Assembly (NCBI GenBank): GCA_016213785.1
Contig: JACQZQ010000002.1
Location: 1 to 46,942, forward strand
Direction of reading: 5' to 3'
DNA: 46,942 nt
Origin: Acidobacteriota bacterium
GTDB lineage: Bacteria > Acidobacteriota > Blastocatellia > Chloracidobacteriales > JADJPF01
The notes beneath the pieces were generated by a model. That model had not been told where the DNA came from and ran no database searches. It saw only the letters and a list, made by a program, of their open reading frames with translations. Made by a program: the position numbers and the translations under genes. Positions 5,484 to 23,984 of the stretch are shown here, piece by piece (the first letter of the stretch is position 1; each line of letters starts with the position of its first letter).

Positions 5484-5646
5484 AAATTTTTACTGGATTT
5501 CCTTAGTTTTTAACATTATATTTTTTGTGCTCCCCTAGTTTTAAGTAGTTAATGAGTTTTGTTGCTTGACTAAACGTACTGATGCTAGAGAAAATAAGGC
5601 TCTAATAAAAGTAACAATACTATTTTAACTAGTTTGGAGATTTTTT

Positions 5647-6021
5647 ATGGAGTTTCATCCGGTTTGTAAATTTAGCGATATTGGTCTAGGTGAAGCTAAA
5701 GCTGCTGTGGTTGCAGGTCATTCAGTAGCAATATTTAATGTTAGAGGAAAGCTTTATGCTATTGAAAATATTTGTCCTCATATGGCTGCCCCGCTTGATG
5801 ATGGCTCTTTAGATGGAACTAAAGTTACTTGTCGCTTGCATTTTTGGGAAATAGATGTAACCAGTGGAAAATGTGTAGAACCTGATAATGGCCGTTGTGT
5901 AGCTACTTTTCCAGTTAAAGTTGAACGTGGGACTATAAAAGTGGGAATTGAGGAAATAAAAGCTGATGTTTCTGATGTTTCTGATGTTTCTGATGAAAAC
6001 TTTGATAAATTTTTACCTTAA
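5647..6021 (+). CDS. Rieske [2Fe-2S] ferredoxin-like protein (NirD / dioxygenase-ferredoxin type)
   Basis: Rieske ligand boxes 'CPHM' (CxH) and 'CRLHFW' (CxxH) with correct spacing, in a 124 aa protein. The C-terminus carries a (DVS)3 acidic repeat. Confidence 0.75.
   Translation: MEFHPVCKFSDIGLGEAKAAVVAGHSVAIFNVRGKLYAIENICPHMAAPLDDGSLDGTKVTCRLHFWEIDVTSGKCVEPDNGRCVATFPVKVERGTIKVGIEEIKADVSDVSDVSDENFDKFLP
5965..5994 (+). repeat. in-frame 9-nt tandem repeat (gatgtttct)x3 encoding (DVS)3
   Basis: Direct reading of 5965-5994 within the 3' end of the Rieske-ferredoxin gene. Confidence 0.9.
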
Positions 6022-6055
6022 GATGTTTCTCCTAAGGTAAAAATTGTGAATAAGT

Positions 6056-7123
6056 TTAGTTAATTATTCTGATTAGTTTTCCATCATATTCTTGAACTTC
6101 TCCTATTATATTTGCTTCAATAGCATGGGATTTAATTTTATCTAATAGAATGGCTGCTTTTTCTTTAGCTACACTAATAAGCAAACCTCCAGCAGTTTGA
6201 GGATCAAATAAAACTGATTGCATAAGAGCAGATATATCAGAAGAAAACTCTACTGTATCCCCTACGTAAGTACGATTATAACGATCTCCTTTAGTCTTTA
6301 TATTTTCAGCAAGTAATTCAAAGACTTGTGGCATTATAGATATGTTGCTTGCATTAAGTTTTAAGGTTACTTTACTTCCTTTAGCCATTTCATAAGCATG
6401 TCCTAACAATCCAAAGCCTGTAATATCAGTTGCAGAATTTACCCCTACTTCTTGCATTGCTTGAGACGCTAAACGATTAGGTTCTGTCATTGCACTAACT
6501 GCTTTTTGCATTGCTTCTTCAGATGCTTTTCCAAACTTAATAGCAGAGCTAATAATTCCTGTCCCCAAAGACTTAGTTAAAATTAATCTGTCTCCTGCTT
6601 TAGCTCCAGAGTTAGTAACAACTTTTTGTGGATGGATTAGCCCTGTTATTGCATAGCCAAACTTAAGTTCTCTATCTTCAACTGTATGGCCTCCAACAAG
6701 AGTTACTCCTACACTAGCAAGCATTTCTGCTCCACCTCTTACCACTTCACCAAAAACGTCTAATTCAGCATCCCCTAAAGGAAGCCCAACAATAGCAAGT
6801 GCTGTTAAAGGTTCGCCTCCCATTGCCCAAACATCGCTTAAAGAATTTACTGCGGCGATTTTGCCAAAAAGATAAGGATCATCCACAACAGGAGTAAAAA
6901 AGTCTACTGTCTGGACTAAGGCTATCTCGTCAGTAAGTTTATAAACCCCTGCATCATCAGAAGTGTTAAAACCTACTAGTAAGTTAGGGTTTGGTACAAA
7001 TTTTGGTAAATGGCTCAGAACTTGAGCTAAATCGCTTGGAGCGACTTTAGATGCTCAACCACCACATTTAGCCATTTCTGTTAATCTTAAGTTTTTTTCT
7101 TTAGAGCTTAATTCTTTAGACAT
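6056..7123 (-). CDS. selD: selenide, water dikinase (selenophosphate synthetase SelD), Sec-containing via in-frame TGA at 7055..7057
   Basis: The track ORF (6056..6886) covers only the AIR-synthase-like body ('DDPYLFGKIAAVNSLSDVWAMGG...'). Extending upstream on the minus strand through one TGA gives ATG at 7123 (GGAG RBS) and the N-terminus 'MSKELSSKEKNLRLTEMAKCGG-U-ASKVAPSDLAQVLSHLP...'. This is the canonical SelD N-terminus in which TGA occupies the catalytic Cys/Sec position. A hairpin follows the TGA. Confidence 0.88.
7027..7050 (-). promoter_or_regulatory. candidate bacterial SECIS-like hairpin, starting 4 nt after the selD TGA
   Basis: mRNA 5'-CUAAAGUCGC UCCAA GCGAUUUAG-3' forms a 9-bp stem with a 1-nt bulge and a 5-nt loop, directly 3' of the in-frame UGA. 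The loop lacks the GGUC-type apical motif of E. coli fdhF, so this is a positional and structural call only. Confidence 0.4.
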
Positions 7124-7159
7124 ATATTTCTCCAATTATAAATATCAATTTTTAGCAAT

Positions 7160-8128
7160 CTAGCACTCTGATAACTGTTGCAGCAAATCATACCAGCATT
7201 TTTCTTCTCTAACAGGGTCAATTAAATATGCTGCTTTCGCACAACTATTTTTTAATTCTTGATAAAAATTAGCATCCATTTCAGCTTTTAAGAATAGATT
7301 TTTAAGAGTCTCTGTATCTGCAACAGAAAAATAACCTGGATAATCTTCTCCTAATGTTGCAACTAGGCTAGGTATATTAGTAGTTATTACAGGGGTTTTG
7401 CTAGCAAGCGCTTCACATAAAACATTTGACCCACCTTCTAAGCGGGATGTAATAGATATTAAATTTGCCTCAGCTATTGCTTGCAAGGTTTTCTCATAAG
7501 AAAATCCTCCTAAATAATGGTAACGGGAGTTTTCTTTTTGAGCTAAATTTATTCTTTCTCTATATTCTGGATTAAGTGGTATTCCTATATGAAAAACCTG
7601 AATTTTTGATTCCGTTGGTAACAGTTTACTTGCTAAAGCAGTACGTAGAGGGTCTTTTTCTGGTCGAAAGTTTGCCACTACTAGAATATTGAAATTATCT
7701 TTAGAAAATACTTCTAACACTTCTCTAGAATTAAAACTAGTAGTTACTGACTGATAAATAACCCTAGTTTTATTTCTTAGATGTGGGGCTAACTCTTCTA
7801 ATGCTTGTTTTTGTAAGACAACTAAGCGAGTAGCGTAATGTAGGGATTGGCAAGCCTCTTCGCTAAATTTAATATGCTGATAAATATCTGTACCAGTTAG
7901 CATAACTACTAGAGGGCGATTAGGATAAAGCTCATAAAAATGCTTAATAGAATTAAAACTACGTAAAGCATGAAGAGCAATCATTAAATCTATGTCTTCG
8001 CCATTATATTCTTTGCTAGTAGATATTTGGTGTCCAAGTTTAGTAATAATTTGCTCAAGACGTAGGGCAGTAATATGATTACCATTAATTAAATCTGCGC
8101 TTGATGGGGTAATAAGTTTAATTTTCAT
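7160..8128 (-). CDS. GT-B fold glycosyltransferase (family-1-like); candidate selenosugar synthase SenB-like by context
   Basis: 322 aa protein with the two-Rossmann-domain layout and C-terminal 'E...GG' type nucleotide-sugar region typical of GT-B glycosyltransferases. It is co-directional with selD and separated by 36 nt. Confidence 0.65.
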   Translation of the reverse strand: MKIKLITPSSADLINGNHITALRLEQIITKLGHQISTSKEYNGEDIDLMIALHALRSFNSIKHFYELYPNRPLVVMLTGTDIYQHIKFSEEACQSLHYATRLVVLQKQALEELAPHLRNKTRVIYQSVTTSFNSREVLEVFSKDNFNILVVANFRPEKDPLRTALASKLLPTESKIQVFHIGIPLNPEYRERINLAQKENSRYHYLGGFSYEKTLQAIAEANLISITSRLEGGSNVLCEALASKTPVITTNIPSLVATLGEDYPGYFSVADTETLKNLFLKAEMDANFYQELKNSCAKAAYLIDPVREEKCWYDLLQQLSEC

Positions 8129-8433
8129 TTATTTATAACCTGTTAAAAAGAGTATCAAAAATCTAGTAGGTTTGTTAATAAGAAATGGCTTAAATTGCTC
8201 TATTGTGCATTCTATAGCTAATTTTTTCTCAACCCAACTGTGTAAAATTCCACTACAAATAGCCCTTAAAATCTATGTCTAGCATTTTCTAGTAATTAGA
8301 AGGGTTTTTCTTATGGCATATAGTTTGCCTAAATCCAAAAACAAGCTTTACATAACTTTTTAGTTCTGCCCATAGCATTAAAGACAGAAGAATTTTTTAT
8401 AGAAATTATCTTTGGTCAGATGAGGGTGTGAAG

Positions 8434-10347
8434 ATGTTAAAAGTGGAAGTGCCAAAAGAAAATTACCATCAAGAGTTAGTTTCTTGCCAAATGGCTTGTC
8501 CAGTTCATACAGATGCTAGAGGTTATGTTAGAGCAATTGCTGAAGGGCGTTTTGAAGAAGCATATTTAATTGCTCGTGGGCCAAATCCTTTTGCTTCAAT
8601 CTGTGGTCGTATTTGTGGCGCTCCTTGTGAAGTAGCTTGTCGTAGAGGAAAAATTCCCCGTCTAGATGATGATGGCAATTTTATTGCTTGGGATAGACCT
8701 ATTTCTATTAGAGCATTAAAACGATTTGCTTGTGAACAATTTGGGCCAGATATACGACCTACTCAAGAAGTTCTAGAAAATATTAAATCTTATATTCCTA
8801 AAATTGCTGGCAACAGTGAAGAAATAGCCGCACTTCTTCAAGCCAGTATCTCTAAAAAATTAATTAAAGCCAGTGGAGAAAAAATAGCAATTATTGGAGC
8901 AGGGCCAGCAGGGCTATCAGCCGCTCATGACCTAGCTTTAATGGGTTTTTCTCCTGTTGTTTTTGAAACTGAACCTGTTGCAGCAGGGATGCTTGCTCTA
9001 GGAGTTCCTGCCTATAGACTTCCTCGTGATTTAATTGTTCGTGAAATTGAAGTAATTAAAGCACTTGGAGTAGAGATTTGTTGTAACACTACTATTGGTA
9101 GAGATATTTCTTTTGCCAAACTTCGCAAGAATTTTGCTGCGGTCTTAATTGCTGTTGGAGCAAAGTCTTCTCGTAGCTTAAACCTTCCTGGTGAACAAGG
9201 CCCAAGAGTTTATGGCGCTGTAGATTTATTAAGGGCTGTTTCCTTAGGCGAGTCTTTAAATATAGGCCAAGATATTGTGGTTATTGGCGGTGGAAATGTT
9301 GCTTATGATGTTGCTAGAACTGTATTAAGACAAATTGCTTATGATGTAGCTCGTACTGCTAAACGCCTTACTTCTATTTCACAGGTTTGGCTAGTTTCTT
9401 TAGAAAGCCTAGAGGAAATGCCTGCCGATACACTAGAAATCCTAGAAGGGGATGAAGAAGGCATTATACGAATGAATGGTTGGGGGCCTTTAGAAATACT
9501 TCGTAGTGAAAACGGTAGTGTAAAGGGGGTAACTTTTAAGCGTTGCCTACAGGTTTATGATGAAAATAAACGCTTTGCCCCTGTTTTTGATGACAATGTT
9601 TGCCAAACTATTTCTTGTGACACAGTTTTACTTGCAGTAGGCCAAAGCCCCAATCTTTCTTTTCTTAAAGATGGAGGAAGCGATATAGAAGAATTTCGCC
9701 CCTCTTGGCCTAAAGTAAACCCTCAAAGTCTTTCTACTACAGCTAAAGGAGTGTTTGTTGCTGGAGATTTAGCTCATGGAACAAGACTTTTAATTGATGC
9801 TGTTGCTTCTGGAAAAAAAGCGGCTCGCTCTATTTATGAGTACCTAACAGGGCGTAGTCTAACCCTAGAATCTACTACTGCTCATATTGTTCAAGATAAT
9901 TATAGGCGTGAAGCTGGTTATGAAAATATTCCTAGAGTAGAAATTCCAGTACTTGAAGCAGAAGAAAGACTTCATCATCCAGATACAGTTGTTGAAAAGG
10001 GTTATAGCTTTGAACAAGCAATTAGAGAAGCCTCACGTTGTTTAGATTGTGGTGTAACACCTGTATTTGATGGAAACCGTTGTGTTTTATGTGGTGGTTG
10101 TGCTGATGTTTGTCCTACTGATTGTCTAAAGCTTGTTTCTTTATCAGAGATAATTCCTACTACAGAGCTAAATACAACAATTAATAATAGTTTAGGCCAA
10201 GATCAAGCCCTAAACCTAGATGAACATTCTGCAATCTTAAAAGATGAGGATAGATGTATTCGCTGTGCTTTATGTGAGATGCGTTGCCCTGTTGATGCAA
10301 TAACTATGGAGAGAGTAACTTTTTCAACTCTTTGGAGGTCACAATGA
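8434..10347 (+). CDS. GltD-like FAD/NAD(P)-binding iron-sulfur oxidoreductase with C-terminal 2x[4Fe-4S] ferredoxin domain; putative NAD(P)-linked subunit of a Rieske/cyt b complex
   Basis: The N-terminus 'CQMACPVHTD...NPFASICGRICGAPCEVACRRG' matches the GltD small-subunit Fe-S region. Two dinucleotide folds are present ('IAIIGAGPAGLSAAHDLA'; 'VVIGGGNVAYDVARTVLRQ'), and the C-terminus carries 'CLDCGV...CVLCGGCADVCP' and 'CIRCALCEMRCP'. The listed start 8428 is GTG; the ATG at 8434 has a GAGGGTG RBS. Confidence 0.85.
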   Translation: MLKVEVPKENYHQELVSCQMACPVHTDARGYVRAIAEGRFEEAYLIARGPNPFASICGRICGAPCEVACRRGKIPRLDDDGNFIAWDRPISIRALKRFACEQFGPDIRPTQEVLENIKSYIPKIAGNSEEIAALLQASISKKLIKASGEKIAIIGAGPAGLSAAHDLALMGFSPVVFETEPVAAGMLALGVPAYRLPRDLIVREIEVIKALGVEICCNTTIGRDISFAKLRKNFAAVLIAVGAKSSRSLNLPGEQGPRVYGAVDLLRAVSLGESLNIGQDIVVIGGGNVAYDVARTVLRQIAYDVARTAKRLTSISQVWLVSLESLEEMPADTLEILEGDEEGIIRMNGWGPLEILRSENGSVKGVTFKRCLQVYDENKRFAPVFDDNVCQTISCDTVLLAVGQSPNLSFLKDGGSDIEEFRPSWPKVNPQSLSTTAKGVFVAGDLAHGTRLLIDAVASGKKAARSIYEYLTGRSLTLESTTAHIVQDNYRREAGYENIPRVEIPVLEAEERLHHPDTVVEKGYSFEQAIREASRCLDCGVTPVFDGNRCVLCGGCADVCPTDCLKLVSLSEIIPTTELNTTINNSLGQDQALNLDEHSAILKDEDRCIRCALCEMRCPVDAITMERVTFSTLWRSQ

Positions 10348-10823
10348 CAGAAGAATCACCAAAAAAATCACGCCTTGATCCAGAACCAATTGCACGTAGA
10401 GATTTCTTAGGTCTATCAGCGCTATTTGCTGCTGCTTCAACTTTGTTTTTTGCTTTATTAGGAATGCTAAAGCTACCTAAAACAGCCGTGCTTTCTTCAC
10501 CATCAAAGAAATTTCCTGTTGTTTTGCCAGATTCTCTAGCTACTGGTGAGGCTTTTATTCCTCAAGGGCGCTCAGTAGCAGTATTTCGTGATGAAAAAGG
10601 AGTTTATGCTATCTCTACTATATGCACTCATTTAGGGTGTGTAGTGAAAAATAATCCAGAAGGTTTTGAATGTCCTTGTCATGGATCAAGATTTTCTGTT
10701 GATGGCACTGTTACTAAGGGGCCAGCACCTCGTCCATTACCTTGGCTAAAAGTAACAAGAAATGGTGATAAATGGCTTGTAGATGAAACTACTATTGTTA
10801 CTCCAGGAACTAAAGCTACATAG
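10344..10823 (+). CDS. Rieske iron-sulfur protein (bc1/b6f type) with Tat signal
   Basis: Twin-arginine motif 'RRDFLGLSALFAAAS', and Rieske boxes 'CTHLGC' and 'CPCHGS'. The ATG at 10344 overlaps the upstream stop as ATGA and is preceded by GGAGG; the listed 10332 is TTG. Confidence 0.9.
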   Translation: MTEESPKKSRLDPEPIARRDFLGLSALFAAASTLFFALLGMLKLPKTAVLSSPSKKFPVVLPDSLATGEAFIPQGRSVAVFRDEKGVYAISTICTHLGCVVKNNPEGFECPCHGSRFSVDGTVTKGPAPRPLPWLKVTRNGDKWLVDETTIVTPGTKAT

Positions 10824-10831
10824 GTGATCTT

Positions 10832-12391
10832 ATGAGTACAAATACAACAAATCAAAACCGCTCAGGATTAGAAAAGTTTTGGGATAACCTTCGCGCTCTT
10901 CCAGAGTACTTTCGCGGTACTGCTTTTAGAACAGGTGTTCCAAATACAGACCGTACTCGCTCTAGTTTTGTATTTGGAAATCTATTTCTACATCTGCACT
11001 CTGTTAGAACTCATTTGTGGAGCTTAAAGTGGTCTACAACTATGGGGCTTGGAATTATAACTACGGCAGCTTTTTTAATTACATTAATAACAGGCGTATT
11101 ACTAATGTTTTATTACAAGCCTTATCCAGATGTAGCTTATCTCTCAATGAAAGATATTCATTTTGTTGTTCCTACAGGCCGTTTTATAAGAAATATTCAT
11201 CGCTGGGCAGCTAATATAATGGTGGTAACAGTAATTCTACATATGGCAAGGGCTTTTTATACTGCTGCCTACCGTAAACCAAGAGAATTTAACTGGTTAA
11301 TGGGAATTGCTCTATTAGCTATTACTCTAGCAATGTCTTTTACTGGCTATTTACTCCCTTGGGATCAGCTAGCTTATTGGGCAATTACTATCGGCGCTAA
11401 TATTGCCCAATCGCCTAGAGAATTAACTGATGCCCTAGGTCTAACTGAATATATTGACCCAGGTGGATTAATTCGGTTATTACTACTTGGCTCTGATAAT
11501 GTTGGGCCAGAGGCTTTAATTAGATTTTATTTACTCCATATTATGATTTTGCCTTTGATACTTGCAATGTTAATGGGGGTACATTTTTGGCGAATCCGTA
11601 AAGATGGAGGACTTGCACGTCCTGTTGATGCTGAAAGTAGGCTTGGAGTCTTACCTACAAATACTTATCCTGTTTTTACCCAAGCTCCAGCAAAAACTTA
11701 TCAGCTTGCAGCAGTTGTAAAGGGTCGAACTCCTTTGGTTGGGCGTGGGCCAGAGTCTACTGTGCCATCAATGCCACATTTATTTTATGCAGAACTAGCA
11801 GTACTAATGTTTACAGTCTTTATCTGTGTAACTCTAGCTCTAATTTCTGATGCTCCGTTAAAAGAATTAGCTAACCCTTCTGTTCCAGAAAACCCAGCAA
11901 AAGCCCCTTGGTACTTTTTAGGTTTACAAGAGCTAGTATCTTTTTCTGCTTTTATGGGAGGAATTGGTATTCCAACTATTGTAATGATTGGGCTTGGGCT
12001 AATTCCTTTTCTAGATCGTGAAGAAAATGGTACAGGTGAATGGTTTGGGGGAACAGGAGGTTTAGATGTAGTTAAAAGAGCTACTTTTATAGGCTTAGCT
12101 GTTCCAATTTTTATTGAAACCATTGCTATTTCTTTTGGCTGGATTAGAGAATGGTTTCCTCAAACTCCTCAAATAATTGTGACTTTTATTAATCCAGCAA
12201 CAATTATCACGCTAGCTTATGCGCTTTACTCTATTTACTTAGTAAGACGTTATAACTCAACCCGAGCAGGTGCATTAGGTTTATTTACCTGCTTTTTATG
12301 TGGGTTTTTAGTTTTAACCATTATTGGGACTTATTTTCGTGGGCCAAATTGGGTGTTTTATTGGTCGCCTTTAGATTGGCCTAAACATTAA
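10832..12391 (+). CDS. cytochrome b (fused cyt b N-terminal plus subunit-IV-like C-terminal region, extra TM helices)
   Basis: Cyt b heme-ligand and Qo-region signatures are present: 'GNLFLHLHSVRTHLW', 'RNIHRWAANIMVVTVILHMARAFY', 'TGYLLPWDQLAYWA'. The 519 aa protein is multi-TM and has an AGGTGAT RBS. Confidence 0.9.
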   Translation: MSTNTTNQNRSGLEKFWDNLRALPEYFRGTAFRTGVPNTDRTRSSFVFGNLFLHLHSVRTHLWSLKWSTTMGLGIITTAAFLITLITGVLLMFYYKPYPDVAYLSMKDIHFVVPTGRFIRNIHRWAANIMVVTVILHMARAFYTAAYRKPREFNWLMGIALLAITLAMSFTGYLLPWDQLAYWAITIGANIAQSPRELTDALGLTEYIDPGGLIRLLLLGSDNVGPEALIRFYLLHIMILPLILAMLMGVHFWRIRKDGGLARPVDAESRLGVLPTNTYPVFTQAPAKTYQLAAVVKGRTPLVGRGPESTVPSMPHLFYAELAVLMFTVFICVTLALISDAPLKELANPSVPENPAKAPWYFLGLQELVSFSAFMGGIGIPTIVMIGLGLIPFLDREENGTGEWFGGTGGLDVVKRATFIGLAVPIFIETIAISFGWIREWFPQTPQIIVTFINPATIITLAYALYSIYLVRRYNSTRAGALGLFTCFLCGFLVLTIIGTYFRGPNWVFYWSPLDWPKH

Positions 12392-12426
12392 AGTAGATAT
12401 AAAACTAAAGATATGAAAGCAAAACT

Positions 12427-14076
12427 ATGGATAAAAACAAATATTTATTACTATGGTCAAGTTTTGCTGCTTTTATAGTGCTAGTAATTGCTGCACTTAG
12501 TGATAACTATTGGAAAGATTGGCAGCAAATTCAAAAAAATGCCCGTGCTGATGGTAAAACAATAGATGTTAAGTTAAGGCAAATTGTAATTCCTGAATTA
12601 AACACAACTGACCGTTGTGTAAGTTGCCATGTCAGTATGGCACCAGGCGAGCAAGCTATGACAGGGCATAATGCTTTGTTAGCCCATAAATCAGTAGTCC
12701 ATGACACTAGTAGCTTTGGTTGCACTATCTGTCACGGTGGTCAAGGGCTAGCAACAGAAAAAGATGATGCTCATGGCAATGTGCATTTTTGGCCTGAGCC
12801 AATGTTGCCTAAAGAGTTTAGCTATGCTGGCTGTGGCACCTGTCATACACCTTTAAGTGTTCCTAACTTAAATACCTTAACTAAAGGGAAAACTTTAATT
12901 GAGCGCTATGATTGTTTAGCCTGTCATCGAATGGATGGTAGAGGCGGTACTATACGCCCTGATGGCGGTGGAATGGAGGGTAATGACCTCTCTTATATTG
13001 GGATTAAAGGTTATGACTTAGCTTGGTATTCAAAGCATATAAATAATCATAATGAAGCTCAAACAGGTACTTGGAGAAACTCTTTTGGGGAAATTTCTGA
13101 GGATGACCAGAAAAATATTGCTAGCTTTCTCTCTACCCGCATTGGTGCGCCTAAGCTAATAGAAGCTAAGGCGCTTTTTAACTCTTTAGGTTGTATGGGT
13201 TGTCATAAAGTAAATGGCGTAGGGGGTGATGCTGGAGCAGACCTTTCTCGAATAGGTTTTAAGGATCCTGGTCAGCTAGATTTTTCTAATGTTACTGCTC
13301 AACATACTTTAGCAAACTGGCTGGCAGAACATTTTCGCTCACCTATTTCTTTAGTTGCAGGCTCTCAAATGCCTGCAATGGGGCTTTCTGAAAAAGAAAT
13401 AGAGCTACTTACAATGTATGTACTTTCTTTGCGGCGTAGGGAACTCCCTAGCAGCTTTTCACCTAAAGACCGTGCAAAGGTAATTCAGTTTAAGGAAAGA
13501 GAATTTGCTACAGATGGCAGAACGCTCTATGGAACATTTTGTGCAAGTTGTCATGGTAGAAATGGAGAAGGTGCACGCTATCCAAATACACAAGCTTTTC
13601 CTGCAATTGCTAGCCCAGATTTTTTAGCTATAGCATCTGATGAGTTTATTTCAAACACTATCCGCAAGGGGCGTGCTGGAAGGCGTATGGCTCCTTGGGA
13701 AAAAGATGGCGGGCTAAAGCCAAATGAAATAGAAGCTATTACTAAACATCTTCGAGAACTGGGTAAAACGTCGTTTACTCCAGAAATAACTCCACCTCGT
13801 TGGGTTAAAGGTGATGCTAATTTAGGTAGTCGTCTTTATAAAGCTAATTGTAGCGGCTGTCATGGCTTAAAAGGCCAAGGTGGAGAAGGGCCAGCACTTA
13901 ATAATAAAGAGTTTCTTGGTAGCGCTACAGATACTTTTCTAGTTCAAACTATTACTAAAGGTCGTCGCAATACCCCAATGGCAGGTTTTGAAAACCCATC
14001 ACCTATACGCCAAGCGCTTTCACAAAAAGAAGTAGAGGCGATTGTTACCCATATTCGCAACTGGAAAGGAGAATAG
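12427..14076 (+). CDS. membrane-anchored heptaheme c-type cytochrome
   Basis: It has an N-terminal TM helix and seven CxxCH motifs (CVSCH, CTICH, CGTCH, CLACH, CMGCH, CASCH, CSGCH). The first four are tightly spaced (NapC/NrfH-like tetraheme style). The last three sit in class-I-like monoheme domains with downstream Met ligands ('MPAMG', 'RRMAPW', 'NTPMAGF'). Confidence 0.9.
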
Positions 14077-14077
14077 T

Positions 14078-17000
14078 ATGGAGAAGTCAATTTCTAGAAG
14101 AGATTTTCTTAAAAGTGTTACTGCTGCCGGGTTTGGTGCTCTAGTTGCTACTAGCGTTGGAGCTTGGGGGCTAGAAAAAATTACTAATCCATTAGCTATT
14201 TATCCAAACCGAGATTGGGAAAAAGTTTACCGTGATTTATGGAAGCACGATTCTAAATTTACTTTTCTTTGTGCGCCTAATGATACACATAACTGTATTC
14301 TTAACGCTTATGTACGGTCTGGTGTGGTAACTCGTATTGGGCCAACAATGCGTTATGGAGAGGCTACAGACTTAGCAGGAAATAGTACTAGCCACCGTTG
14401 GGATCCTAGAATCTGTCAAAAAGGTCTAGCCCTAACACGTAGGTTTTATGGAGACCGTAGAGTTAATGAATGTATGGTGCGAGCAGGGTTTAAGCGTTGG
14501 TATGAAGCTAACTTTCCTCGTGGTCAAGATGGACTACCACCACGTGAATATTTCCAGCGTGCTAGAGATGAATGGGTAAGGATGTCCCACGATGAAGCAG
14601 CAAAAATTGTTGCAGCCGCATTAAAAAACATTGCTGAAACTTATACAGGTGAAAAAGGTAAACAACTTCTTAAAGCTCAACATTATGATGAGGCTACCAT
14701 TGAGGCTACTCAAGGTGTAGGCACTCAAGTTCTAAAATTCCGAGGAGGAATGCCGCTACTTGGTATTACTAGAGTCTTTGGGCTTTATCGAATGGCTAAT
14801 TCTATGGCTCTACTTGATGACCATATTCGTAAAGTTGGCGCAGATAAAGCAGTTGGTGGTAAAGGTTTTGATAACTACTCTTGGCACACAGACTTACCTC
14901 CAGGTCATCCAATGGTAACAGGTCAACAAACTGTAGAGTTTGATCTTTGTGCAGTTGAGCAGGCTAAAACTCTAGTAGTTTGGGGGATGAACTGGATTAC
15001 TACAAAAATGCCTGATTCCCATTGGTTAACCGAAGCACGTATGAAAGGCACTCGTATAGTGGTAATTGCTTGTGAGTATTCTGCTACTGCTACTAAAGGC
15101 GATGATGTTGTAGTTGTTAGACCAGGAACAACTCCTGCACTAGCCTTGGGTTTTGCCCATGTCATTATGAGAGATAAGCTTTATGACCTTGAATATGTAC
15201 GCCAATGGACGGACTTACCCATTCTAGTACGTATGGATAGCTTAAAATATTTACGTACTGAAGAAGTTTTTGGACAAAAGGCAGCAGAACTTACTAATCA
15301 AACCAGAATCTTAAAAGAAGGTGAAAAAGAACCTCCTGCCGCTCAACAAAGCGAGATGCTAATTTCAGAAAAAATGCGTCAGGAATGGGGTGACTACCTT
15401 TGGTGGGATCAAACTTCTAATAGCCCAAAACAACTTACTCGTGACCAAGTAGGTAAACAATCAAAAGTTGGAGAGGCTTTATTAGAAGGCACTGTAGAAG
15501 TAACTTTAGCAGATGGAAAAAAGGTTCGTTGTCGTCCAGTTTTTGATTTAGTAAAAGAATATGCTGCACATTTTGACCCTAAAACTACTGAAGAAATAAC
15601 TTGGGCACCCGCTAAGGCTGTAGAATCTCTTGCACGTCTTTTTGCTAAAGAACCAGGTACAACGCTTTTTGCAATTGGAATGGGGCCAAATCAATTTTTT
15701 AATAATGATAATAAGGATAGAGATATTTTCTTACTCGCAGCACTTACAGGAAATGTAGGAAAAATTGCAGGAAATGTTGGTTCTTATGCAGGTAATTACC
15801 GTGTAGCGCTCTTTAATGGTTCTCCTCAGTATATTAATGAAAACCCATTTGATATTGAACTAGACTCTTCAAAGCTTGCTAGAGTAAAACAATATTGGAG
15901 GGCTGAATCAGCGCATTATTATAACCATGAAGACCATCCATTAAGGGTTGGTAATAAATTACTTACAGGTAAAACTCATATACCTACCCCAACAAAATCA
16001 CTTTGGTTTGCAAATGCTAATTCAATACTTGGTAATGTGAAATGGCATTACAACACAGTAGTTAATGTGTTACCTAGAATTGAAATGATTGCTGTCCAAG
16101 AATGGTGGTGGTCAACTTCTTGTGAATGGGCAGATATAGTTTTTGGGGTAGATTGTTGGGCAGAACTAAAACATCCTGATATGACTGCCTCTGTAACAAA
16201 CCCATTTTTACAAATCTTTCCTCGAACACCTTTACCAAGAGCTTTTAATACTTTAGGGGATATTGAAGTACTTGCACTAGTGTCCTCTAAGTTAGCTGAC
16301 CTAACAAAAGATAATCGTTTTAATGATTATTGGAAATTTGTTAAAGAAGATAAAACTAGTATTTATTTACAAAGGATTTTAGACACTTCAACTAACACTA
16401 AAGGCTATAAGATTGAAGAGCTTGAAGCTAAAGCTAAAGAAGGTATTCCTGCTTTAATGAATAGCCGAACTACACCAAAAGTAGTTGGTTATGAACAAAT
16501 TGAAGATTCCCGCCCTTGGTACACTAAGAGCGGACGGCTAGAGTTTTATCGTGAAGAGGATGAGTTTATTGAAGCAGGAGAAAACTTACCTGTTCATCGT
16601 GAGCCTGTAGACTCAACTTTTTATGAGCCTAATATAATTATTGCTCCAAAACATGAGGCTATTCGTGCTGCTAGCCCAGAAAGTTATGGAGTTAAACGAG
16701 ATGATCTTTCTTGTGAGACTCGTTGTGGGCGTAATGTAGTTTTAAGTTGGGCAGAAGCTAAAAACACTAAACATCCGCTTGCTAAAGATGGATTTAAGTT
16801 TGTTTTTCACACTCCTAAATATAGACATGGTTCACACACTACGCCAATTGATACAGATATGGTGGCGGTACTTTTTGGCCCATTTGGAGACCTTTACCGA
16901 CATGACAAGCGCAAACCTTTTGTTACAGAGGGCTACGTAGATATTAACCCAGAAGATGCTCGTGAAATTGGTGTTGAAGATGGTGATTATGTTTGGCTTG

Positions 17001-17512
17001 ACCCTGATCCAGAAGATCGCCCTTTTCGAGGATGGCAAAAAAACTCTAAAGATTATGCTTTTGCTCGTCTGCTTTGTAGAGCACGTTATTATCCTGGGAC
17101 ACCTAGAGGAGTAACTAGGATGTGGTTCAATATGTATGCCGCTACTCCAGGCTCTATGGAAGGGCAAAAGACCCGCCAAGATGGTTTAGCAAAAAATCCT
17201 CGTACTAATTACCAGGCAATGTTTCGCTCAGGTTCTCATCAATCAGCAACTCGTGGTTGGTTAAAGCCTACCTGGATGACTGACTCTTTAGTTAGAAAAG
17301 GACTTTTTGGACAAGGTATAGGAAAAGGGTTTTTACCTGATGTCCATTGTCCAACAGGTGCCCCTCGTGAAGCAGTAGTTAAAATTACTAAAGCTGAGCC
17401 AGGCGGTATCAATGGACAAAAGCTTTGGCGACCAGCAGCGCTAGGTATTCGCCCACGTTATGAATCCGAAGCAATGAAAAAATATCTAGCAGGGGAATTT
17501 ATTAAAAAATAA
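14078..17512 (+). CDS. Tat-exported molybdopterin (bis-MGD) oxidoreductase alpha subunit, NarG/NxrA-like (type II DMSO-reductase family)
   Basis: The true start is ATG 14078 (AAGGAGAATAGT ATG; the upstream 12 codons of the track ORF lack an RBS). Tat motif '[26 protein letters not shown]'. The 1156 aa length matches periplasmic NxrA/NarG-clade enzymes rather than ~900-980 aa Ser/Ebd/Clr/Pcr alphas. An N-terminal FeS motif 'C-APN-D-THN-C' is present, and NarH-, gamma- and TorD-like genes follow. Confidence 0.85.
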
Positions 17513-17572
17513 GACTGTTAGGGTAGATCTATAGATTTACCCTTCTTATAAAATCATAAAGGAGCAAAGAAA

Positions 17573-18700
17573 ATGGCACGCGTTTATAATTGGCAAATAG
17601 GTAGAGAGATGTCTTATTGGTATCCAGAAAGCCGACCAGAAAAACAGTTTGCCGCAGTATTTGATGTTAATAAATGTATTGCTTGTCAGACTTGTACTCT
17701 AGCCTGTAAAACTACTTGGACATCTGGACGTGGACAAGAGTATATGCTCTGGAACAATGTAGAGACTAAACCATATGGTTTTTATCCTCTAGCTTGGGAT
17801 CTTAATTTGTTAAATTCCTTACAGGGACAAGAATGGCAGGGTAATGTTTATCAAGGTCAAACCGTTTTTGAAGCAGCACCAGAGGGTGAAAGGGTTTTAG
17901 GTTGGCGACCAGAAGAAGAAGATTACTCTTATCCAAATGTTGGAGAAGATGATTGTGTAGGACAAATTGAAAATGGTGCAAGTCTAGAAGTTCCCCATAT
18001 GATGTGGTTTTATTATCTAGCACGTATTTGTAATCATTGTACCTACCCAGCATGTTTAGCTTCTTGTCCTAGAGGCTCAATTTACAAACGTCCTGAGGAT
18101 GGAATTGTGCTAGTAGATCAAAGCCGTTGCCGAGGTTATCAAGAATGTGTTAAGGGCTGTCCATATAAAAAAGTATTTTTTAACCCAATGACAGGCACAT
18201 CAGAAAAATGTATTGCTTGCTTTCCTAAAATAGAACAAGGTATTCAACCACAATGTTTTGTTAATTGTATAGGCAAAATTCGCCTTGCAGGATGGCTTTC
18301 TAAGCCTGATCAAGCAAACCCAGAAAACCCACTTGATTACTTAGTCCATATTAAGAAAATTGCATTACCACTTTTTCCACAATTTGGGTTAGAGCCTAAT
18401 ATTTACTATATTCCTCCTGTACATGTACCAACACATTTCTTAAAACAAATGTTTGGGCCTGGAGTAGATGAAGCTGTTAAACAATATCGTAATATGGCAC
18501 AGGATTTGGATTTAGCAGGGCTTTTAGCTTTATTTGGCTCAACAGAGTTTATTGTTCCTAGATGGAAACGCCAAGGTGATTTAGTAATAGGGATGAGTGA
18601 AAAAGGTAGCGAACTTATTAAAGTACCACTCCGTGAGCCTGTATATATTCGCTCAGCCTATGATTCTAAATTTTCTATTGCTCGTGTTAATTGTCCATAA
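17573..18700 (+). CDS. NarH/NxrB-like iron-sulfur beta subunit (four Fe-S clusters)
   Basis: '[38 protein letters not shown]' is the hallmark NarH/NxrB N-terminus. Further Cys clusters are '[14 protein letters not shown]', '[12 protein letters not shown]' and '[11 protein letters not shown]...CFVNC'. Confidence 0.9.
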
Positions 18701-18762
18701 AGCCTTCATATAAAGACATTTACTTGGATTTTAGCAAAAGTAGATAGAGTAGATAGGAGTAG

Positions 18763-19668
18763 ATGATTATGTTAAGGGCAAAATTTATATTGATTTTAAT
18801 AGTAACCTTGATTTTAAGCAGCAATTTATTGATTTTAAGTTGTCGTAGTGGCGAAGGCCCCGTTACAGCGGAAGTAGTAATTATCCCATCTGCTAATGTT
18901 CCGCTTGAACCAAATGCTCCTTTATGGAAAGGTATTCCTCGCCATTTAGCTAAATTAATACCTCAAGATTTAGTTGAACCAAGGCTTACAAAATCCTCTA
19001 CTGCTGAAGTAGAAGTAAAAGCTTTGTCTAATGGCACTCTAGTAGCTTTTCGCTTAGAGTGGCTAGACCCAGTAAAAAATGATTTACCAGGGCCAGCACG
19101 CTTTATTGATGGCTGTGCAATTCAAATTCCTTCTAAAATAGCTGCTAATGTTCCTGATCCTCAAATGGGACAAGAAGGTCAATCTGTAGAAATAACTTTT
19201 TGGCGTGCTGATTGGCAAGCAATTGTAAATGGCCGTAAAGACTCTATTAAGGAACTCTACCCTAATGCTACAATTGACCATTATCCTTATGAAGCAAAAC
19301 CTTTAGAAAAAGACCCTGCTCTACAAAGCGAAATGGCAAAACGTTATTCTCCTGCAAGAGCTTTAGGTAATGGTAGGGAAGGGCCAAGAGATTCAGCAGT
19401 AGAAGAATTAATTGCAGAAGGCCCAGGTTCTTTATCTCCATCACCTAACCCTACAGGAGCAAAAGGAAAAGGGCTATATAATAGTAAAGGATGGTCAGTT
19501 GTAATTTTACGTAATTTACCAAAAGACTTAAGCCCTAATAATAGATCTCAAGTCGCTTTTGCTATTTGGGAAGGAGCACATGGTGAGGTAGGAGCAAGAA
19601 AAATGCGTAGCGGTTGGGTGCCTTTACTTATGAAGGCAGAAGGGGAGTTAAGCAAAAATGTACAATAA
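18763..19668 (+). CDS. putative gamma subunit (NxrC / type-II DMSOR gamma-like, signal peptide, probable heme b)
   Basis: 301 aa protein with N-terminal signal/anchor 'MIMLRAKFILILIVTLILSSNLLILSC'. Its size and position after the alpha and beta genes match EbdC/SerC/NxrC-type gamma subunits. No c-type heme motif is present. Assignment is by context. Confidence 0.55.
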   Translation: MIMLRAKFILILIVTLILSSNLLILSCRSGEGPVTAEVVIIPSANVPLEPNAPLWKGIPRHLAKLIPQDLVEPRLTKSSTAEVEVKALSNGTLVAFRLEWLDPVKNDLPGPARFIDGCAIQIPSKIAANVPDPQMGQEGQSVEITFWRADWQAIVNGRKDSIKELYPNATIDHYPYEAKPLEKDPALQSEMAKRYSPARALGNGREGPRDSAVEELIAEGPGSLSPSPNPTGAKGKGLYNSKGWSVVILRNLPKDLSPNNRSQVAFAIWEGAHGEVGARKMRSGWVPLLMKAEGELSKNVQ

Positions 19669-20308
19669 AATTAACTATAAAGAATTCTTAGTTGAAGCTA
19701 CTGAGTGGAGGCTAATTAGTTTACTTTTTGAATGTCCAAAAGATGATTGGAAAAAGAAAGTAAAAATGCTAGCTAAAGAAGTTTTAGACCCTGACTTAAA
19801 AGATGCTGCTAAGTTTGCTTGCAAAGAAGCTACAGAAGGGCTTTATCACTCAATTTTAGGCCCAGGCGGCCCAGCACCCGCTCGCGAAATAAGTTACAGT
19901 GGTGGTTGGACACAGCCTGGTTACTTGATGTCAGAGCTAGATAGTTATTATCAAGCTTTTTCCTATCAACCTGTTACAAAAGAAACCCTTGATCATATTT
20001 CTGTAGAAACAGGTTTTATTAGTTATCTAAGGCTAAAAGAAGCTTATGCCTTAGAATGCGGTGCAATAGAGCAAGTAGAAATTACTTCTCAATCTGCTAA
20101 AACCTTTATAAATGAGCATTTAACTGTTATAGCCCAACCTTTAGCTGAAATAATGGAAAACCTAGAGGTTAGCTATTTAGAATATGCTGCAAAAGCTTTG
20201 TTTAAGCGTGTAGGGACTACTAAAAATAAACCCTTACCAATTTATCAAACATCTTTTCAAGAAAATGATAGCTGTGAGTTTAGTTGTAGTGTAGAAACAG
20301 AGGAGTAA
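19658..20308 (+). CDS. TorD/NarJ-like molybdoenzyme maturation chaperone (delta subunit)
   Basis: 216 aa helical protein overlapping the gamma gene by 11 nt. Its position and size match the NarJ/SerD/EbdD system-specific chaperones of type II molybdoenzymes. The call rests mainly on context. Confidence 0.55.
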   Translation: MYNKINYKEFLVEATEWRLISLLFECPKDDWKKKVKMLAKEVLDPDLKDAAKFACKEATEGLYHSILGPGGPAPAREISYSGGWTQPGYLMSELDSYYQAFSYQPVTKETLDHISVETGFISYLRLKEAYALECGAIEQVEITSQSAKTFINEHLTVIAQPLAEIMENLEVSYLEYAAKALFKRVGTTKNKPLPIYQTSFQENDSCEFSCSVETEE

Positions 20309-23504: not shown

Positions 23505-23984
23505 TTACTGTTTACTAAGTTCAAGTCTTATTTGACGAATTTGGCTAACATGGTTTTCACAATGTTCTGCATAAAGGCGAACTAAATTTATTAGACTCAT
23601 TTTACCGTGTTCATCATGAATACCAGTTCTTTCCCAATCATCTTCTTCTATTTCTTGGAATAACTCTGCGGTAGATTTACGGAGTAAGCGAAAAAGCTCT
23701 ACAGCTTGAGCAAGATTACGTTTACCATAGTTAAGATGATCAGCCCATTTATCTTGATCATAGCTAGTTAATTTAGGGTCATCTTCTGCTAGGACTCTAC
23801 GAATACGGTGTGCAGCAACAATTTCGCTATCACAAAGATGAATGGCTATTTCGCGTATATTCCATTTACCAGGAGCAGGCCGAAATTCTAGTTCATATTC
23901 GCCTAAACCATCAATACTACGTTCTAGCTTTCCATGCCCAGAACGAAACCGTTCTAGTATCTCTTTACGCTCAAGTGCGTCCAT
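23505..23984 (-). CDS. DinB/YfiT-like (DinB_2) metal-dependent four-helix-bundle protein
   Basis: 159 aa. His residues spaced as in DinB_2 proteins ('HLCDSEIVAAHRIRR', 'YAEHCENHVSQI'). Confidence 0.65.
   Translation of the reverse strand: MDALERKEILERFRSGHGKLERSIDGLGEYELEFRPAPGKWNIREIAIHLCDSEIVAAHRIRRVLAEDDPKLTSYDQDKWADHLNYGKRNLAQAVELFRLLRKSTAELFQEIEEDDWERTGIHDEHGKMSLINLVRLYAEHCENHVSQIRQIRLELSKQ

Follow-up and report, generated by a model that had tools for sequence, protein, structure and literature searches.

A senB–selD gene pair in a low-GC Blastocatellia-like acidobacterium as a predicted selenosugar-synthesis cassette

Two consecutive genes on the minus strand of the window, that is, the whole 46,942-nucleotide stretch of DNA that was analysed, form the core of the locus: a glycosyltransferase gene of the senB family and, downstream of it, selD (Table 1). 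The original prediction had described a 322-residue glycosyltransferase ending 36 nt before selD on the same strand, and this description is exact. No terminator-like site was detected by a terminator scan of 5500..8600. On the other side, the ORF map shows an intergenic region, presumed to hold the promoter, that separates senB from a divergent operon starting with a GltD-like gene. Promoter-like hexamers occur there on the minus strand (8178..8151), yet their count is not above shuffle expectation. Most likely, a single transcript starting in the region upstream of 8128 covers both genes. In relatives of the locus, the senB–selD spacer measures 34–59 nt in six cases and approximately 440–520 nt in two (L013 and L093). 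Beyond selD lies a gene for a Rieske ferredoxin-like protein, whose previously proposed position and convergent orientation hold. Its stop codon is separated from that of selD by 34 nt and, being convergent, it is not co-transcribed with selD.

Table 1. Genes and sequence elements of the senB–selD locus, numbered by position in the window
Feature	Position	Strand	Details
senB-family Se-glycosyltransferase (selenosugar synthase, predicted)	8128..7160	-	322 aa; ATG start; TAG stop 7162..7160
senB–selD spacer, 36 nt	7159..7124	-	ribosome-binding site GGAG 7133..7130, 6 nt before selD ATG
selD (selenide, water dikinase; SenC role)	7123..6056	-	ATG 7123..7121; TAA 6058..6056; 355 codons including one Sec
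In-frame TGA, Sec codon 23 of selD	7057..7055	-	motif AKCGG-U-ASK
Two conserved hairpins, candidate bacterial SECIS	7013..7047	-	10–44 nt 3' of the selD TGA
Rieske [2Fe-2S] ferredoxin-like protein	5647..6021	+	PF00355, 68.6 bits; full CPH...CRLH ligand set
Divergent intergenic region, 299 nt	8129..8427	.	between senB and GltD-like first operon gene; presumed promoter region

Family assignment of the glycosyltransferase is based primarily on the NCBIfam hidden Markov models. The protein matches the equivalog model TIGR04348, currently named 'selenoneine biosynthesis selenosugar synthase SenB', with 328.1 bits against a cutoff of 300, a margin of only 28 bits (E 4.7e-98; residues 3–317 on model positions 1–309/310). 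The original prediction had named this accession for the SelD-associated glycosyltransferase family, and it is the right one. In the same search, no named GT4 family other than SenB was above its cutoff: the runner-up, NF038229, reached 112.5 bits against 400, and the remaining models scored below 28 bits each, with cutoffs of approximately 260–800. Standard annotation with current NCBI models would already call this protein SenB. The competing explanation is that an ordinary family-4 envelope or polysaccharide glycosyltransferase merely happens to lie beside a housekeeping selD. It can draw on the Pfam result, which shows only the generic Glycos_transf_1 domain (PF00534), and on a weak similarity to GT4 envelope enzymes, but the model scores argue against it, and the earlier caveat that the protein might fit ordinary GT4 families did not materialise.

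Structural comparisons lead in the same direction. Among solved structures compared by sequence, the SenB entries 8k5u, 8jjq, 8jjn, and 8fbx were retrieved with E-values of 6.5e-43 to 1e-41, and the first non-SenB glycosyltransferases appeared at 7.8e-5. An AlphaFold model of the protein (pLDDT 91.0, pTM 0.84) was compared with the PDB using Foldseek, in which all of ranks 1–15 were SenB or RsSenB chains with TM scores of 0.79–0.89, 30–34% identity, and E-values of 1e-26 to 1e-31. BshA followed at 2e-16, which leaves the E-values of the SenB matches ahead of those of other GT4 enzymes by 10 orders of magnitude or more. This ranking also counts against an unrelated glycosyltransferase.

The retention of SenB-specific catalytic residues is a further argument against chance proximity. 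Mutagenesis of the Variovorax paradoxus enzyme identified N20, T23, T83, T85, R155, K158, E231, and E239 as important, with Lys158 as the catalytic residue, N20/T83/T85 forming the selenophosphate pocket, N20/T23/E231 the sugar triad, and R155/E239 contacting UDP (PMC10891094). According to an alignment to RsSenB and a 15-sequence alignment, the equivalents in the window protein are N17, T20, T78, T80, R155, K158, E231, and E239; most of these positions are invariant across the 15 sequences, and H53, D81, and Q126 are conserved in the window protein as well. Comparison with the characterised V. paradoxus SenB, which had been proposed as a check, thus shows agreement in sequence and fold together with conserved catalytic residues. 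Two sugar-pocket positions are changed relative to that enzyme (V157 to E and H235 to N), and both changes are common to senA-linked relatives. At the site of the sugar-donor motif 'EGGAHV', described for beta-proteobacterial SenB-like enzymes, the window protein reads EGGSNV, in which E231 is retained while A is replaced by S and H235 by N. Because the S-N variant is invariant in 15 of 15 aligned sequences, including senA-linked ones, it probably represents a trait of the subgroup rather than a loss of function, and it may affect donor preference. The gene is under purifying selection (dN/dS 0.07–0.25). By sequence and modelled fold, the protein belongs to the SenB family of selenosugar synthases, with an activity and a sugar donor predicted from those of its characterised homologues.

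The second gene encodes, as judged from its sequence, a true SelD containing selenocysteine. It scores 381.9 bits with TIGR00476 (cutoff 125) and 338.9 bits with NF002098 (cutoff 299), and has the AIRS and AIRS_C domains (PF00586, PF02769). The mechanical ORF list gives only 6056..6886 for selD because of the in-frame TGA at codon 23. This TGA and the coding sequence on either side of it are kept in eight related loci, among them the distant Blastocatellales locus L079. By motif alignment, we take U23 to correspond to Cys17 of the Escherichia coli enzyme, and the Lys after it to Lys20. Global reassignment of TGA was considered and rejected, as two genes of the window terminate in TGA and the only in-frame TGA among its 31 ORFs is that of selD. 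The candidate SECIS folds at -13.6 kcal/mol (z -2.59; 3 of 200 shuffles equally good), its second hairpin has the form GCUCAR-GUU-YUGAGC, and the fold of the alignment contains four pairs with compensatory changes. An Rfam scan of the window gave no match, the candidate SECIS included, and a tRNA scan of the window found none. Since SelD carries selenocysteine, the host must decode it, and the same SelD probably also serves selenocysteine synthesis in a housekeeping role. Consequently, its adjacency to senB is no proof of a dedicated pathway.

Nine distinct related low-GC loci have senB followed by selD; their glycosyltransferases share 61–98% identity, and their outer flanks differ. The named members are Blastocatellia metagenome-assembled genomes, and the genomes of the clade include GCA_023265235.1 (JAHFUF01), GCA_964492845.1 (CAZBMZ01), JBDIBI01, and CAZHXL01. 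All of 30 bootstraps recover the clade as monophyletic, and it stands on a long stem branch. Persistence of the order amid different flanks in nine loci places the pairing far beyond chance. Together with the family, fold, and residue evidence, this effectively refutes the view of an envelope glycosyltransferase lying by accident beside selD, to which only a very small residual probability is assigned.

The nearest relatives outside the clade (43–50% identity; L014–L090) belong to Binatia, Deltaproteobacteria, Acidobacteriota, and other groups. They fall in the same TIGR04348 subgroup, form sister branches in the tree, and have in common with the window protein the EG(G/S)SNV motif and E157. 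Their gene context is the reverse of that in the window clade: in 68 of the 77 loci senA immediately precedes senB, and selD occurs within 10 kb of senB in only one. A GH84 N-acetylglucosaminidase and an MFS transporter are often encoded there as well. In L079, where NCBI labels the gene adjoining senB 'selenoneine synthase SenA', a TGA-containing selD is located 5 kb from senA–senB. The position of the non-clade relatives directly downstream of senA and the naming of this neighbour tie the whole family to selenosugar chemistry. L079 also leaves unsupported the earlier suggestion that a selenosugar locus would be unusual in a selenocysteine-using host. The base of the clade is thus marked by a clean context switch, with linkage to senA lost and linkage to selD gained.

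Taken together, the locus can be read, with a probability of approximately 0.8, as a two-gene selenosugar-synthesis cassette, senB–selD ('senBC' in published work), a reading that derives from sequence comparison and structural modelling and supports the original SenB/SenC-like interpretation. SelD, with its selenocysteine in the catalytic N-terminal loop, would use ATP to phosphorylate selenide to selenophosphate, with which the SenB-family GT-B enzyme would attack a UDP-sugar; in characterised SenB enzymes, the latter is UDP-GlcNAc or UDP-Glc. Lys158 would aid cleavage of the Se–P bond, freeing a 1-seleno-beta-D-sugar. This product would then most likely be passed on to an iron enzyme of the SenA or OvsA type whose gene lies at another place in the genome, yielding selenoneine or ovoselenol, although its use may also be independent of such an enzyme.

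Two published systems are suitable for comparison. The selenoneine cluster of V. paradoxus has the composition senABC (Kayrouz et al. 2022), and its SenB family is represented by the structures 8FBX, 8JJN/Q/T, and 8RZ3. The window locus resembles its SenB/SenC part in having the same two families adjacent on one strand, a SenB fold matching at TM 0.88–0.89, and the same catalytic Lys158, selenophosphate pocket, and UDP contacts. It differs in sequence (30–34% identity; E157 and N235 where that enzyme has V157 and H235), in having neither senA nor egtD at the locus, in the selenocysteine of its SelD, and in its host, a low-GC Blastocatellia-like acidobacterium as opposed to the beta-proteobacterium or actinomycete of known selenoneine systems. 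The closest published precedent for the architecture is the ovoselenol (ovs) system of Marinobacter vinifirmus, where senBC is chromosomally apart from ovsA/ovsM (PMC11030361), i.e., a two-gene selenosugar cassette separated from the consuming enzyme. The ovs clusters are found almost exclusively in aquatic gamma-proteobacteria, and neither ovsA nor ovsM has been tied to the window clade.

The search for the partner enzymes was conducted at several levels. No PF03781 (FGE-sulfatase) domain was found by a Pfam scan of the window ORFs of at least 100 aa, so no EgtB-, SenA-, or OvsA-type gene is present among them, and tblastn with SenA and EgtD queries returned nothing in the whole 47-kb window or in 9–21 kb at the eight other clade loci. 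The earlier observation that the window has no EgtB-like senA was therefore correct and extends to the rest of the clade loci. It should be noted that egtD is optional even in published selenoneine clusters. A 159-aa DinB_2 protein (23505..23984) was considered as an EgtB remnant and rejected, being a YfiT-like thiol transferase that has no FGE-sulfatase domain. At a larger scale, a SenA profile built from eight acidobacterial sequences was run on a set of 5.8 billion proteins and gave more than 8000 matches; none of the best 120 had the low-GC amino-acid composition of the clade, all being of the high-GC type. A DNA pattern for MIGNVWEWT in low-GC codons was also scanned over JGI metagenomes. 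Eighty loci were loaded out of 120 matching stretches, and no SenA attributable to the clade was found among them. The only low-GC SenA-like match, L102, spans 1.4 kb and is followed by a DjlA-like gene, with nothing tying it to the clade.

These results bear on two ways of placing the cassette in a wider metabolism. According to one of them, which has about an even chance of being correct, the cassette would be one half of a selenoneine or ovoselenol route, with SenA or OvsA and EgtD or OvsM encoded elsewhere on the chromosome. The modularity of sen genes is consistent with such a split: most of the nearest non-clade loci combine senA and senB with no selD within 10 kb, the selD of L079 is 5 kb away, and in the original survey only 827 of 2,353 TIGR04348 genes were at most 5 kb from both egtB and selD homologues (preprint 10.1101/2022.04.13.486033). 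In addition, other Blastocatellia do carry SenA. The empty neighbourhoods of the nine clade loci and the JGI scan speak against a split route, as does the profile search, although the latter is weak evidence. The original 'senBC-only' proposal is valid for the locus, with no senA in 47 kb, and is only a possibility for the genome, given that relatives split their sen genes and that ovs clusters are separable (PMC11030361).

The other possibility, which appears unlikely though appreciable, is that the clade does without SenA and OvsA altogether and that the selenosugar is itself an end product (a redox buffer, a selenium store, or a detoxification form) or a selenium donor for an unidentified acceptor enzyme, perhaps with participation of the Rieske protein. 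The context switch at the base of the clade and the persistence of purifying selection on senB are compatible with this possibility, and, in the words of the pathway's own authors, selenosugars 'could play yet unknown roles'. On the other hand, the absence of senA pertains to loci and not to genomes.

The Rieske gene itself gives a mixed picture. It adjoins selD in eight of the nine distinct clade loci while everything further out differs, which favours a selenosugar module of its own. Beyond it lie ApbA in the window, an opp ABC operon in L095, an 85-aa ORF and a methyltransferase in L004, and a 134-aa ORF in L002. Against its involvement stand its convergent orientation, the occurrence of Rieske homologues of 65–69% identity beside a PGM1_C/ATP-grasp gene in L091 and L092, where neither selD nor senB is present, and the L008 lineage, in which senB–selD lies beside the same PGM1_C/ATP-grasp gene type and the Rieske gene is missing. 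An obligatory partnership is rejected on these grounds, and the gene is kept as a weak lead. For this gene, originally raised as a possible redox partner or an unrelated neighbour, the comparison shows a frequent but not obligatory neighbour. The divergent operon of the type II DMSO-reductase family (8428..20308), every subunit of which falls below its NCBIfam cutoff, was likewise rejected as a functional partner, since no relative has it next to the cassette.

A separate observation concerns senB in two basal lineages of the clade, for example in L013 and L095, which has a conserved in-frame TGA at codon 66 or 67. This codon falls where a helix ends, probably away from the active site. In a search for a SECIS at this TGA, no predicted structure outperformed shuffled sequences (z -0.04 to -1.1). 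A more far-reaching and distinctly improbable proposal is that the clade cassette works in the absence of SenA/OvsA, the selenosugar being an end product or a selenium donor for an undiscovered, possibly Rieske-served acceptor, and that the UGA of basal senB might act as a selenocysteine-dependent translational gate, through which selenosugar would be made only when selenium is plentiful. If this TGA is decoded as selenocysteine, SenB would be the first enzyme of selenium-metabolite biosynthesis besides SelD to have a selenoprotein form.

The main result is confirmatory: the senB–selD pair of this low-GC, uncultured, Blastocatellia-like acidobacterium adds a new member to a known cassette type, and its value is that of a data point. 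Throughout an acidobacterial clade, senB stays tied to a selD with a selenocysteine codon, and the linkage to senA found in the nearest relatives has been dropped. If SenA and OvsA prove to be absent at the genome level, this clade would lend itself to studying the role of selenosugars alone, a question left open by the discoverers of the pathway.

The best-supported interpretation of the senB-selD pair is that it would form a cassette for selenosugar synthesis. The glycosyltransferase (GT) matches NCBIfam TIGR04348, whose current name is 'selenoneine biosynthesis selenosugar synthase SenB', at 328.1 bits (curated cutoff 300), covering model positions 1-309 of 310. The NCBIfam model in second place scores 112.5 bits (cutoff 400), and Pfam returns the generic Glycos_transf_1 alone. 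The original prediction of a SenB-like enzyme is supported by this check, with every other model far below its own cutoff, and current annotation pipelines would already call the gene SenB. The only strong PDB sequence matches are the SenB entries 8K5U, 8JJQ, 8JJN, and 8FBX (E 6.5e-43 to 1e-41). A 15-sequence alignment served as input for an AlphaFold model (pLDDT 91.0, pTM 0.84). When this model was compared with the PDB using Foldseek, ranks 1-15 were all SenB chains (TM 0.79-0.89, best 0.88-0.89; 30-34% identity; E 1e-26 to 1e-31), and the first non-SenB glycosyltransferase was BshA (E 2e-16).

Mutagenesis of V. paradoxus SenB has linked K158 to Se-P bond cleavage, N20, T83, and T85 to the selenophosphate pocket, N20, T23, and E231 to the sugar, and R155 and E239 to UDP (PMC10891094). 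All eight residues are found in the GT (K158, N17, T78, T80, T20, E231, R155, and E239), and in the alignment they are mostly invariant across its relatives. In contrast to the V. paradoxus enzyme, the GT pocket carries V157->E and H235->N, with EGGSNV instead of EGGAHV; E157 and N235 are common to the whole 43-100% identity group, including senA-adjacent genes. In the proposed mechanism, SelD would convert selenide and ATP into selenophosphate, which SenB would join to a UDP-sugar with cleavage of the Se-P bond, yielding a 1-seleno-beta-sugar. Biochemical work on the V. paradoxus enzymes has shown this chemistry (10.1101/2022.04.13.486033; PMC10891094). The profile match, fold, residues, and conserved senB->selD order thus support the selenosugar module first proposed for this locus.

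Coordinates of the cassette, its neighbors, and features of the fetched homologous loci (L numbers)
Feature	Locus	Coordinates	Strand	Details
senB (GT)	window	8128..7160	-	322 codons; ATG start, TAG stop 7162..7160
senB-selD spacer	window	7159..7124	-	36 nt; GGAG 7133..7130
selD	window	ATG 7123 to TAA 6058..6056	-	355 codons
selD in-frame TGA, codon 23	window	7057..7055	-	motif AKCGG-U-ASK
Rieske ORF	window	5647..6021	+	convergent with selD; full CPH...CRLH ligand set
Rieske tandem repeat	window	about 5960..5995	+	9-nt unit
Long respiratory-type operon	window	8428..20308	+	divergent from senB
TGA-terminated genes	window	stops 10345..10347 and 38161..38163		each overlaps next gene
DinB_2/YfiT-like protein	window	23505..23984	-	159 aa
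TGA-bearing senB	L013	10001-10957	+	
TGA-bearing senB	L093	12918-11956	-	
TGA-bearing senB	L095	9785-10744	+	
TGA-bearing senB	L096	3131-4090	+	
TGA-bearing senB	L097	3534-4493	+	
GH84 example	L062	4572-5735	same as senB	PF07555
MFS transporter example	L072	4017-5279		convergent with senB
Tail-to-tail arrangement	L091	3082-5119		
Tail-to-tail arrangement	L092	237-2397		
Tail-to-tail arrangement	L008	3667-6306		
SenA-like C-terminus and following gene	L102	1-1081		JGI contig, 37.8% GC

The positions originally claimed for the GT, the 36-nt gap, and selD proved exact on re-reading of the sequence, and around the cassette the window is identical to a 42-kb Logan contig (run SRR12113407). The short spacer with its ribosome-binding site, together with the lack of a terminator-like site between the genes in a scan of 5500..8600, suggests that senB and selD are co-transcribed. 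The spacer extends to about 440-520 nt in two sister loci (L013 and L093). SelD passes TIGR00476 (381.9 bits against 125) and NF002098 (338.9 against 299). Because of the codon-23 TGA, a mechanical ORF list contains only a 276-codon tail of selD. Eight loci, among them the distant L079, keep both this TGA and the coding sequence flanking it. Two hairpins 10-44 nt 3' of the TGA, whose fold beats 197 of 200 shuffles (z -2.59) and which show compensatory changes, are consistent with a candidate bacterial SECIS. TGA is rare as a stop in this lineage, with 20 TAA, 9 TAG, and 2 TGA stops in the window. Since two genes nevertheless stop at TGA, and selD is the sole gene with an internal TGA among 31 ORFs, the genetic code is standard.

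A protein search with the GT found one relative at 98%, five at 77-79%, truncated gene calls at about 63%, and then matches at about 50% or less. When one genome per species was scanned, the nearest genomes were metagenome-assembled and labelled Blastocatellia (77% and 61% GT identity), with a further 75% match labelled 'Clostridia'; Binatia, Deltaproteobacteria, Acidobacteriota, Planctomycetota, and others followed at 43-50%. The 'uncultured Clostridia bacterium' locus L012 (CAZHXL010000202.1) has a senB-selD-Rieske block with 75-88% identity both to the window and to Blastocatellia locus L002/L011, with the same genes upstream; its tag probably reflects a binning or labelling error.

For the context survey, ORFs were called and clustered in all fetched loci, and tblastn was run with SelD, SenA, EgtD, and Rieske queries; the contexts fell cleanly into two groups. 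The window clade comprises nine distinct loci (window, L002, L004, L008, L012, L013, L093, L095, and L097) with a GC content of 32.5-38.9%. All nine carry senB->selD with the Sec TGA. The absence of senA noted for the window was borne out and extends to the clade: neither SenA (selenoneine synthase) nor EgtD (hercynine supply) was detected by tblastn in any of the nine loci (9-47 kb each). Among 77 non-clade loci, a SenA gene lies immediately 5' of senB in 68, and selD lies <10 kb from senB in just one, L079 (Blastocatellales), whose gene NCBI names 'selenoneine synthase SenA'. A neighbor-joining tree of 87 SenB sequences rooted on RsSenB, a solved homologue, recovers the window clade in 30/30 bootstraps on a long stem, with senA-linked sister branches. 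The clade has dropped senA linkage, and its senB is under purifying selection (dN/dS 0.07-0.25).

Upstream genes also vary. In most clade members (L002, L004, L012, L013, L093, L095, and L097), the genes preceding senB on its strand code for a 484-aa aldehyde dehydrogenase and for a chromate transporter of the CHR family, joined by MsrA in L095 and L097; the window and L008 have neither gene at this position. Among the loci that pair senA with senB (L014-L090; Binatia, Deltaproteobacteria, Acidobacteriota, and others), 40 have a same-strand upstream GH84 beta-N-acetylglucosaminidase (PF07555, 281 bits), and 32 a convergent MFS transporter just 3' of senB. No paper tying a GlcNAc hydrolase to selenoneine clusters was found in the literature.

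Two basal branches of the clade carry a conserved in-frame TGA within senB itself. In L013 and L093 it occupies codon 66 (CGC TGA CTA), and in L095, L096, and L097 codon 67 (CAA TGA TAT); the window reads GAG-CTT (Glu66-Leu67). Gene callers report two separate products, of 66 aa and 247 aa, and both halves are under purifying selection (omega 0.08-0.24 in divergent pairs). In the GT model the position falls in the last turn of helix 58-67, ahead of strand 73-77, and judging from Rossmann-fold topology it probably lies well away from the active site. Two distant homologues, L079 and L052, have Cys66 (motif 'RFRCEHP'). A structure search of the TGA-bearing loci gave no convincing SECIS, the literature yielded no account of SenB as a selenoprotein, and not one of the 30 genes called in L093 and L095 stops at TGA. 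The senB TGA may be decoded as Sec, may be a seldom-used stop that is read through leakily, or may divide the protein into two pieces.

The products of the divergent operon include a GltD/YgfK-like Fe-S flavoprotein and a Rieske protein, along with cytochrome b and a 549-aa multihaem cytochrome c. It also encodes a molybdopterin (alpha) subunit of 1156 aa, a beta subunit with Fe-S clusters, a gamma subunit of the EB_dh type with haem b, and a chaperone. Every subunit falls below the cutoffs of type II DMSO reductase family models. There is no sign of a functional link to the cassette, since no relative among the fetched loci has the operon beside it. The convergent Rieske gene, proposed as either a redox partner or unrelated, neighbors selD in 8/9 distinct clade loci, with genes beyond differing each time. 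It is missing beside the cassette in the L008 lineage, and homologues at 65-69% identity adjoin a PGM1_C/ATP-grasp gene in loci that lack selenium genes; the link is a weak lead. At the C-terminus of the Rieske ORF in the window, about three tandem copies of GATGTTTCT encode DVSDVSDVSD and bring the protein to 124 aa, against 110-113 aa in relatives. The Rieske gene, selD, and the PGM1_C/ATP-grasp gene (533-540 aa) each stand tail-to-tail with another, depending on lineage, a pattern that points to recurrent local rearrangement near the cassette.

As to the fate of the selenosugar, there is about an even chance that senA, or its ovoselenol counterpart ovsA, is encoded elsewhere in the genome, because splitting of such pathways is common: the first survey placed only 827 of 2,353 TIGR04348 genes in clusters of three genes (10.1101/2022.04.13.486033), ovoselenol genes can sit chromosomally apart from senBC (PMC11030361), and senAB is separate from selD in 68 of 77 relatives. 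A truly partner-less selenosugar module is rather unlikely. The proposed senBC-only arrangement holds at the level of the locus alone, across all nine clade members. In a SenA profile search, the best 120 of at least 8000 matches all had high-GC-type composition, and a low-GC codon pattern scan of JGI metagenomes for a clade SenA gave, among the 80 loci loaded, only an unrelated fragment. On this fragment, L102, a SenA-like C-terminus is followed by a DjlA-like co-chaperone gene, without senB; this is another unlinked senA, from an unrelated organism. Within the window, the stand-alone DinB_2/YfiT-like protein (81.6 bits against the bacillithiol transferase model, cutoff 160) was rejected as an EgtB/SenA remnant and is a putative thiol S-transferase.
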